From Escherichia coli (GTDB lineage Bacteria; Pseudomonadota; Gammaproteobacteria; Enterobacterales; Enterobacteriaceae), in assembly GCF_003334335.1 (NCBI RefSeq), contig NZ_QOWQ01000098.1: a DNA stretch of 1,853 nt; one strand, given 5' to 3'. This document shows positions 1-1,853 of this stretch, piece after piece. Position 1 is the stretch's first letter. Each line of letters begins with the position of its first letter. Under the pieces are notes generated by a model. It saw only the letters and a list, made by a program, of their open reading frames with translations. It did no database searches and was not told the origin of the DNA. Both the position numbers and the translations under genes were made by a program.

Positions 1-631
1 GTGGTCCGGGTGGTCCGGCCTCTCCACGTGGGCCGGTGTCACCTTTCGGCCCCGGCGGTCCGCCCGGGTCACCTTTATCGCCCTTCGGTCCCTGTGGACC
101 TGTTTCTCCCCGTTCTCCCTTTGGCCCCGGCTCACCTTTTGGTCCGACCGCCCCCGTTGCCCCGGCTGGTCCCTGTGCCCCTGTGGCACCCTGTGGACCT
201 GTGTCCCCCTTCTCGCCCGCCGGTCCCCGGGCATTCTCTGCCCGTTTCTTCGCTTCCTCTGCACTCGCCGCCGACGCTTCAGCACGCTTCAGGATTTCCG
301 CTGCCACCGCTTCCAGCTCTGCAAGCGCTTTCGGGTAATACTGCGCCTCATCCTGTTCCATCAGAAATTTATTCAGCGTTCCCGGCTCAGAATCCGCCTT
401 CACCAGAATGTCACCCACATACGACGGGGCGTACCCTTCCGTGTTCAGCGTCACCCGGTACCACCCCGGCTCCACATCAAAACTGTAACTGCCGGTTTCC
501 CCCGGCTGCCCCTGCGCCACCGTGGTGACTATCACTGTCTCTGTGGTGCGTCGCGCTTTCAGCTCTATGGTGCATCCCGGCACCGGCTTCCCGGTGCCGT
601 CCTTCAGCACGCCCGATATTCTGACTGTCAT
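1..631 (-). CDS. stf: Side tail fibre protein, Stf-like N-terminal domain followed by collagen-like Gly-X-Y repeats; partial, 3' end runs off the window start
   Basis: The minus-strand frame (plus-strand triplets starting at position 2) is open from the ATG at 629-631 to the window edge; I checked every plus triplet in that frame for tta/cta/tca and found none. GGGAGA lies 5 nt upstream of the ATG. The translation [28 protein letters not shown]... matches, from memory, the N-terminus of lambda Stf ([17 protein letters not shown]...). Residues ~136-210 are Gly-X-Y triplets ([55 protein letters not shown]...). It is absent from the supplied ORF track, probably because it has no in-window stop. 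Confidence 0.8.
2..226 (-). repeat. Collagen-like Gly-X-Y triplet-repeat coding region within the stf-like gene
   Basis: Nineteen consecutive G-X-Y triplets from residue 136 (plus ~226) are followed by a 1-residue register shift and then more triplets to the window edge. Very GC-rich DNA (hand count 45/60 G+C over 1-60). A 14-bp exact direct repeat CCCTGTGGACCTGT occurs at 90-103 and 189-202. The proline-rich plus-strand ORFs 1..528 and 36..338 are the antisense shadow of these Gly/Pro codons. Confidence 0.8.
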
Positions 632-636
632 AGATT

Positions 637-642
637 TCTCCC
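637..642 (-). promoter_or_regulatory. Shine-Dalgarno sequence for the stf-like gene
   Basis: Plus-strand tctccc at 637-642 reads GGGAGA on the minus strand, separated by a 5-nt spacer (AATCT) from the ATG at 629-631. Confidence 0.6.
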
Positions 643-644
643 AT

Positions 645-677
645 AAAAAAAACCGCAGTACCGGTTACCCGGTCTGC
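645..677 (-). terminator. Intrinsic-terminator-like hairpin plus T8 tract between J and stf, on the coding (minus) strand
   Basis: The minus strand reads GCAGACCGG-GTAA-CCGGTACTGC (9-bp GC-rich stem with a 1-nt bulge and a 4-nt loop; plus coordinates 655-677), then GG, then TTTTTTTT (plus-strand A8 at 645-652). The T-run ends 13 nt before the stf ATG. Pairing was done by hand; no free energy was computed. Confidence 0.45.
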
Positions 678-713
678 GATCAGGGGTATAAATTGTGACT
701 GGCTGGTGTTAAA

Positions 714-737
714 GGGTGCCGTCAGTCAAAGGCACCC
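714..737. other. Inverted repeat / potential stem-loop in the J-stf spacer
   Basis: GGGTGCC (714-720) and GGCACCC (731-737) form a perfect 7-bp inverted repeat around a 10-nt loop. It is not followed by a convincing U-tract on either strand (the minus strand continues TTTAACACC). Confidence 0.25.
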
Positions 738-815
738 GTGGATAATGTACGATGTCCGGCTTTTGTCGTTTTCCGTCAATCACGAACAGATGGATGAAAC
801 CTCACTATCCACCTG

Positions 816-1853
816 TCACGATGCGGTATCAAAATCGTCTGTATAGGATTTCAGGTAAAACAGAACCGGGTCCGGGATCCGAATTTGACTCGTATCATGA
901 AGTATTGAACCACCCATGTAAAAAAGCACACCTGCTTCATACCTGAATGTAATTTCAACCCGCGCATCACCCTGTCCGGCAGGAATACCCCATGAGCCTG
1001 ACGCACTTCCGCCAACATCAGAATATACCGGCTCATATCTGCTGGCGTTTTTGGAAATCTGGACCTCCCGCTCCCCGGTTTTGACTTTGCCTGACCTGGC
1101 ATGAACGACAACTTTGTCATTTATCTTCATGATGAATTCACCTCTGGAAAAGGAATACGCCATAAGCATAAGCTTGCGATCAAACGGCATGTTGTCTTTC
1201 AGCAAAATCATTTTCTGAAAAGTCAGCTGGTTCTGAGTCATTACGCCCTGCCCCATATCAACCGTGTATCCCTTGACGATATCACCAATGATTCGGTCAG
1301 CGCTCATCGTTCCATTAATGGTGCAGTCTTCCGCAATCGTCACGTTATTCAGCGTACCGGAACTGGCACTGATATTCCCGCTGATATCGGCATTACGGGC
1401 CGTCAGCCTGCCGTCCGGCGTCAGGGAGAATGCCGGGGGATTGCCGCCGCTGGTAATGGTGGGGGCGGTGAGCGTCTTTATCAGCGCCTCATTGATAAAC
1501 GTCTGTCCCCCCTGCGTGACCAGTGCGGGTGTGGTATCACCATTCTCCGGATTAATGAATGCCACGCGGTCCGCTGCCAGCAGTATCTGGCTCTGCATCC
1601 CGTCAGGGGTGTTCTCAATACCGGCACCGATACCGGCAATATAGCGACGACCATCCTGCATCTGCTGTAGCTTCACCGCCCACATGCTGTTCAGGTCATT
1701 ATTTGTGTCCGTCTGCACACGCTGGATTTGCTGTATGGTGGCGTTCTGGTCCTCCAGCGTTTTACTGACCGTCTGCGTGATTTCATTGCGGGTTTCTGTG
1801 ATGGTGGTCTGCATTTCCGCCATCTCGTCCTTCAGCTGACTGTTGTCAATCTC
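816..1853 (-). CDS. J: Host specificity protein J (tail tip / central tail fibre), C-terminal portion; partial, 5' end lies beyond the window end
   Basis: The ORF track gives 816..1823 minus (335 aa) with the TGA stop at 816-818. The same frame stays open from 1824 to 1853 (…EIDNSQLKDE before the listed M), so the M at 1821-1823 is internal and not the true start. The translation contains MWAVKLQQMQDG, YIAGIGAGIENTPDGMQSQILLAADR, LTAPTITSGGNPPAFSLTPDG and NVTIAEDCTINGT, which I recognise as the conserved C-terminal third of lambda gpJ. The last ~151 aa diverge (see findings). Confidence 0.9.
   Translation of the reverse strand, partial: EIDNSQLKDEMAEMQTTITETRNEITQTVSKTLEDQNATIQQIQRVQTDTNNDLNSMWAVKLQQMQDGRRYIAGIGAGIENTPDGMQSQILLAADRVAFINPENGDTTPALVTQGGQTFINEALIKTLTAPTITSGGNPPAFSLTPDGRLTARNADISGNISASSGTLNNVTIAEDCTINGTMSADRIIGDIVKGYTVDMGQGVMTQNQLTFQKMILLKDNMPFDRKLMLMAYSFSRGEFIMKINDKVVVHARSGKVKTGEREVQISKNASRYEPVYSDVGGSASGSWGIPAGQGDARVEITFRYEAGVLFYMGGSILHDTSQIRIPDPVLFYLKSYTDDFDTAS

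Follow-up and report, generated by a model that had tools for sequence, protein, structure and literature searches.

In phage lambda, the three receptor-binding domains (RBDs) of the central tail fibre J insert their distal loops L1-L4 into LamB, and the spreading of the RBDs acts via the prism and the shaft to open the tail (PMC11101478). The names of the J domains used here are those of Ge et al. (PMC11101478), in which the alpha-helical shaft (AHS) comprises lambda residues 809-861. Natural J C-termini grafted onto lambda J retarget lambda to OmpC (Brodel et al. 2024, PMC11338833). The swapping of J tips is an accepted way for lambdoid phages to change their receptor and has already been used in engineered lambda; the principle is not new. 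Among the tip types compared in this study, the receptor is known for two, namely LamB for the lambda type and OmpC for the type of the A8 tip.

The window analysed here, a stretch of 1,853 nt from an Escherichia coli contig, contains the end of a gene of this kind. All coding of interest lies on the minus strand, where the J frame enters from the right end and, according to the ORF translation, stops at a TGA codon at 816..818. The encoded protein is a lambda-type tip attachment protein J (central tail fibre). In phmmer against PDB sequences it matched lambda gpJ structures (E 3e-66), its GenBank/RefSeq annotation is J, and in the annotations of E. coli G1/2, 99RCEF and PhiR12_2 the gene is placed after K-/I-like genes and before stf. 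A prophage of E. coli G1/2 contains the window at 99.7% identity, and there the full J has 3,531 nt and 1,176 aa. The 99.7%-identical full-length J carries all five gpJ Pfam domains with E values of 1e-30 to 3e-40, in the series FNIII-A_GpJ, Phage-tail_3 hub, Ig_J, Ig_J_second and Phage_Tail_Tip. Mapping via the full-length gene (L005:6508-10038) placed window position 1853 at J nt 2494 of 3531, and the window therefore holds only the C-terminal 345 aa of J.

Three parts of J could be delimited on the minus strand of the window. Part of the AHS occupies 1686..1853 and aligns with lambda J 822-861, the gene going on past the right end. The beta-sheet prism, or central straight fibre (CSF), extends over 1272..1685 and aligns with lambda J 862-1000; it ends in the junction motif GDIVK (1272-1286), and Pfam Phage_Tail_Tip (PF09327) spans the CSF region in the full-length homologue. 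The C-terminal RBD, hereafter the tip, is encoded at 819..1271; it has 151 aa and belongs to a rare and highly divergent type. Overlapping ORFs at 851-1120 on the minus strand and at 992-1084 and 1101-1670 on the plus strand were rejected, because they were unannotated in all inspected records and the J frame explains the conservation.

A preliminary description, made from the letters of the sequence, had regarded the protein as near-identical to lambda gpJ up to GDIVK. This was overstated. In BLASTP against lambda J (NC_001416), query aa 18-235 aligned with lambda 822-1041 at 49% identity over 221 aa (E 7e-70), and 81% identity (54/67) was reached in the last block before the tip, LTAPTITSGG...GDIVK. 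However, the divergence of the terminal 151 aa after GDIVK was borne out. The tip, GYTVDMGQGVMTQNQL...SYTDDFDTAS, directly follows this motif; past it BLASTP leaves only a weak stretch, including DNMPFDRKLMLMAYSF against lambda DDHPFDRQIVVLPLTF, and DNA homology to lambda stops at 1271. A high full-length identity to the LamB-binding domain of lambda was not seen, as the tip and lambda J residues 1001-1132 were 23% identical in a global alignment. The PFDR-containing stretch, described earlier as the sole remnant of lambda likeness, is present, but T, D, N (NG/NA), P..G (PAGxG) and K also align. The preliminary description was right in substance, since a J protein with an extreme C-terminal module unlike that of lambda and a sharp boundary at GDIVK is supported; it overstated the identity to lambda and leaned on an argument from base composition that does not discriminate.

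That argument concerned the G+C content, for which the earlier hand counts proved correct (44.2% over 1141-1260 and 56.7% over 1441-1500). The tip has 46.6% G+C (GC3 49.7%) against 58.8% (GC3 70.3%) in the rest of the full-length J, where the minimum over 453-nt windows of the scaffold is 53.2%. The expected step near position ~1270 was present in the profile and the drop is confined to the tip, as the adjacent window 1272-1727 has 56.4%. As a sign of an exchanged cassette, however, the shift is worth less than had been proposed. Real though the drop is, most other J RBD types show it too, with 47-52% G+C in the RBD against 50-55% in the scaffold and a lower GC3 as well, lambda being the exception. 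Low G+C alone was therefore rejected as a mark of foreign DNA, and it counts here as weak evidence of foreign origin because most other tip types share it.

The tip is rare. It was found in 29 of 5,426 complete E. coli genomes (~0.5%), at 98-100% identity and with the ORF intact, and also on five IMG/VR contigs. The 29 genomes hold 52 copies in all, and several hold tip DNA more than once: SW070917 at 6 places, DETEC-S792 at 4, and G1/2, G6/7, G8 and NCTC9112 at 3 each. When the 151 aa were searched by tblastn against 50,697 phage records, only the five PhiR12 phages were returned. A blastn search of the E. coli genomes in 'distant' mode returned the same 29 genomes and no more diverged DNA relatives. 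Protein searches gave a similar picture, with only three near-identical fragments in a word-indexed search of 5.8 billion clustered proteins, and three near-identical fragments and one weak match in a full HMMER (phmmer) search of 1.84 billion representatives. The weak match (E 4e-4), a repeat protein with pre-peptidase-like domains, was regarded as chance. A look-up of contigs encoding the tip gave one short E. coli contig only, and a degenerate-codon pattern for MPFDRKLMLMAY, verified to match the window itself, had no match in 100,044 species represented by one genome each. Relatives of the tip between ~27% and 95% identity were not found in these searches.

To place the tip among other J tips, we used a sample of 80 IMG/VR loci encoding the conserved block before the junction, together with lambda and two E. 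coli relatives. Each frame was read to its stop after GD[ILF]VK, which resulted in 11 tip types. The ten other types are 32-80% identical to one another and have in common the motifs FP, GT-TV, DD-FDRQ, C-L-V-NG-IY, DMPAGxG-TL-F-V and ISDL-V-KK-GISI. The tip of the window is 19-27% identical to them. Such mosaicism is ordinary among phages; what stands out is how distant this member is.

We favour the reading that the tip is related, very distantly, to the Ig-like RBD and is not a foreign fold. BLASTP and tblastn of the tip against canonical J tips gave nothing significant, and no PDB sequence was matched by the 151 aa in phmmer at E up to 10. In a MAFFT alignment of the tip plus 25 upstream anchor residues with 15 canonical tips, the invariant columns T42, D51, F55-D56-R57, N100, P122, G126 and K166 appeared in the same order, with insertions of ~4, 10 and 9 residues at variable-loop segments and a shorter first loop. 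The tip alone was further aligned by hhalign with a profile of 40 other tips, with 60 shuffles as control. The local score was 28.8 (P 3e-4, with a probability of only 39%; query 23-108 against template 24-99), about 6 SD above the shuffles (12.5 +/- 2.6, maximum 22.6), and the global score was 13.0 (P 0.015; shuffles 3.4 +/- 2.0). The PHROG 5269 profile, whose membership is not known, matched the tip at E 2.5e-17.

Structure prediction pointed in the same direction. An AF2 monomer from the single sequence was unusable (pLDDT 34). With an alignment, which was dominated by canonical tips, AF2 gave a beta-sandwich with a mean pLDDT of 65.6 and a pTM of 0.63, in which the core strands had pLDDT 70-90 and residues 87-111 fell below 50. 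In Foldseek against PDB, this model matched the tips of lambda and A8 gpJ, in their closed and open states, in the four top positions (E 6e-7 to 4e-6, TM ~0.5); the best overall was the closed-state fibre of lambda, and the next match after these tips had E 2e-3. In the BFVD viral library, Foldseek returned nothing beyond weak, generic matches of beta-sandwich or collagen/C1q-like type (E of at least 1e-4, TM of at most 0.43). This structural evidence is not independent of the alignment, because the usable model was built from an alignment of canonical tips.

Our results revealed that the change at the tip is abrupt at the DNA level. In blastn, the match to the lambda J gene spans window 1271-1472 (76.7%) and breaks off at 1271; that to J of strain GE3 breaks off at 1273. 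In all other J tip types sampled, divergence likewise starts at GD[ILFV]VK. Megablast of the full J against E. coli genomes matched thousands of J genes over nt 1-3012 at 91-93%, after which the matches stop. The closest such relative, that of UPEC-245U, showed a sliding identity of 93-100% to ~nt 2620, of 63-78% over J nt ~2650-3075 (window 1272 to ~1700), and of chance level over J nt 3076-3531, where there is no homology. An upstream breakpoint was placed at 1692..1727 by megablast, and by sliding identity to UPEC-245U and LZSFT34 together with the positions of mismatches. Common E. coli J genes match the sequence at 93-100% to the right of it (5' in the gene) and at 63-78% to the left. The three tiers of identity therefore imply two breakpoints within the window, and in these alignments the J gene is a nested mosaic with respect to its closest E. 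coli relatives.

The exchanged segment has its 3' border within the J-stf intergenic region 632-815. PhiR5_1 shares window 1-658, the stf region, at 98.9% and carries a different tip together with lom; an stf module so similar next to another tip requires recombination between the two. In GE3, homology to the left of J covers window 56-784 in pieces. From the homology breaks and PhiR5_1, and not from G+C, we infer that the tip was acquired by recombination and did not diverge in place. All 29 tip-bearing E. coli genomes have the same shaft/prism scaffold and the same stf N-terminus; a second scaffold carrying the tip was not seen among them, and a donor lineage was not found either.

The intergenic region between J and stf (632..815, minus strand, 184 nt), as delimited by the annotations of neighbours and the limits of homology, is without a lom or hok/gef gene. 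Elsewhere this slot holds lom, as in lambda, PhiR5_1 and UPEC-245U, or a hok/gef toxin gene, as in GE3, and it is thus a second variable site next to the tip. A terminator scan found a terminator-like hairpin with a T8 run at ~645-680 (minus strand), just upstream of the RBS and start of stf; at this site PhiR12_2 has a 2-nt deletion. Rfam gave no match anywhere in the window. From the ATG at 631, the minus-strand translation of 2..631 gives 210 aa, the N-terminus of a side tail fibre (Stf-like) whose gene is cut by the left end of the window. Over its first 129 aa it shares 52% identity with aa 1-129 of lambda orf-401/StfN, the function of which was taken from PMC12617516, and PHROG tail-fibre families match. 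An StfN-like collar domain is followed by collagen-like G-X-Y repeats (aa ~135-210, window 1-230), which at ~66-72% G+C form the maximum of the window.

Some features of the wider neighbourhood may be added here. The stf N-terminus is 99.4% identical to that of phage P-EibA of ECOR-9. In the tip-bearing prophages, a YadA-like (Eib-type) surface protein is encoded downstream of stf and of its DUF4376 assembly gene (L005 12778-14019; L086 7581-8453; L087 7097-8453). E. coli G1/2 carries two separate prophages with the same J-stf-tfa-YadA order, one of them with a frameshifted J and stf. In PhiR12_2, an insertion sequence consisting of a transposase and an ATP-binding helper (L002 8978-11259) breaks the tail-fibre region downstream of stf.

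The same tip could in principle have arisen without import, if a resident J RBD had been under long diversifying selection from receptor variation; its low G+C would then follow from rapid evolution or from amino-acid composition, and the fact that most other RBD types also lie below their scaffold in G+C and GC3 would agree with this. The tip is still collinear with the canonical RBD, and neither a donor lineage nor intermediate relatives emerged from the searches. The natural variants of the tip include 6 nonsynonymous and 2 synonymous changes, all within RBD residues 95-133, against 2 nonsynonymous and 6 synonymous in the adjacent 194 aa of scaffold, a contrast that is suggestive but not significant (Fisher P 0.13). 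However, DNA similarity shows no gradual decay but falls from ~75% to none within a few bases at 1271-1273. The flanking stf of PhiR5_1 is nearly unchanged beside a different tip, and the other tips at the same junction differ as discrete types. For these reasons we consider hyperdivergence of a resident domain improbable. Far less credible still is the view that the tip is the decayed or non-functional end of a gene in a cryptic prophage. It is true that several genomes annotate neighbouring tail genes or J as frameshifted, that J of PhiR12_2 is annotated as two CDSs and that the tip region of PhiR12_5 is listed as 'hypothetical protein'. Against this, the 151-aa frame is intact and 98-100% conserved in the 29 genomes and the five IMG/VR contigs, and the frameshift, located in a homopolymer upstream, does not occur in PhiR12_1, PhiR12_2_star and PhiR12_4, in which J is annotated intact. 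The records of the five sequenced phage genomes with the tip, moreover, name laboratory hosts; this speaks against a dead remnant and implies that laboratory strains have the receptor.

Divergent sequence alone is no proof of a different receptor. The tip might bind a receptor already used by J proteins (LamB, OmpC or FhuA), perhaps in an allelic variant, and the host range would then not be fundamentally new. According to their GenBank records, the host of the PhiR12 phages is E. coli K-12 MG1655 or E. coli C; both of these strains express the common porins. The J chimeras A8 and 1A2 both use OmpC (PMC11338833), so that more than one J chimera may target one porin. Yet the tip is only 23% identical to the LamB-binding tip of lambda and 22-25% to the A8-type tip (L025/L030), and its segments at the variable loop regions differ in length. 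We regard a shared receptor as rather unlikely. Our preferred reading, to which we assign a probability of about 75%, is that the tip is the RBD of a lambdoid prophage or phage J of the PhiR12/Eib-prophage group, a distant Ig-like homologue that probably has a different receptor.

According to this preferred reading, and by analogy with lambda on LamB and A8 on OmpC, the trimeric fibre would end in three tips whose distal loops enter an outer-membrane protein, and binding would trigger a rearrangement of the CSF and AHS that leads to tail opening. We infer such trimeric, loop-mediated binding from these two systems. The beta-strand framework, marked by T, D, FDR, N, PAGxG and K, is kept, and it is in the segments aligned with the variable regions of the family that the tip departs furthest and is longer. 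At least two of the longer segments we take to be receptor-contact loops, considering the lambda host-range mutations at residues 1012 and 1107. The segment between the GD(I/L/F/V)VK junction at 1271/1272 and the J-stf intergenic border would have been exchanged as a unit, which would be the usual reassortment of host-range modules among lambdoid phages.

In our view the tip is functional in receptor binding and has a predicted specificity unlike the lambda and A8 types. Its receptor, or receptor variant, most likely differs from those of these two types, because the loops and most surface residues differ; the use of LamB appears unlikely, and a changed receptor and host range may reasonably be expected. 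That the tip recognises a receptor new to lambda-type central fibres, i.e. not LamB, OmpC, OmpF or FhuA, is a more tentative proposal, to which we give somewhat less than even odds. If true, the tip would be a new orthogonal host-range module that could be grafted onto lambda J at GDIVK. If the receptor should be LamB or OmpC after all, the tip would show how little sequence suffices for a specificity. A receptor-prediction preprint of 2026 does not cover the PhiR12 phages.

Those phages carry the closest known relatives of the locus. PhiR12_1, _2, _2_star, _4 and _5 (PV340549-PV340554), which reportedly come from the temperate phage panel of Brenes and Laub 2025, have the same tip at 99.3% amino-acid identity and match the whole window at 97.6-99.2%; they represent the same element with no substantive difference. 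J is split in PhiR12_2 because its G6 homopolymer at window 1507-1512 (plus strand C6; L002 ~6342) differs by 1 nt, which may be a sequencing error or a real homopolymer frameshift. In another sampled locus, L019 (IMG/VR 2731957947_000001), the J frame runs past the PAGxG position into a 297-aa side-fibre-like tail, which suggests a J-stf fusion or a deletion joining both genes.

The J of the LZSFT34 prophage (WP_306594699) has an N-terminal scaffold as in the J studied here (91.6% over J nt 2-3066). Its tip (L089 5577-6030) is also atypical, also has 151 aa and follows GDVVK. It remains recognisably related to tips of the 434 and 21 types, with 27-33% identity in tblastn, and it showed no significant similarity to the tip of the window (BLASTP E 11).

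Compared with lambda gpJ (PDB 8XCJ, 8XCK, 8IYK), the J protein studied here has the same gene position and the same domain order of hub, two FNIII/Ig domains, alpha-helical shaft, beta-prism and C-terminal tip. In both proteins the tip starts after GDIVK and contains FDR, N, PAGxG and K in the same order. However, the tip has 151 aa here and 132 aa in lambda, the two are ~23% identical and without DNA homology, the segments in the loop regions are longer here, and the lom gene found downstream of J in lambda is absent from this locus. The natural OmpC-binding tip of the A8 gpJ chimera (PDB 9WCA, 9WCB; PMC11338833) belongs to the canonical cluster. This A8 tip (9WCA chain J residues 296-428) equals the L028 type of our sample and shares 41-44% identity with the lambda tip, whereas the tip of the window is only 22-25% identical to the A8 cluster (L025, L030). 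What makes the tip useful is its extreme sequence position, ~20-25% identical to every other type and without intermediates. It nonetheless sits on a standard scaffold behind a clean junction, in sequenced phages that name laboratory strains as hosts. It may serve as a test case of how far the J RBD framework may diverge while still coupling binding to tail opening, and as a possible orthogonal targeting module for lambda-based delivery vectors.
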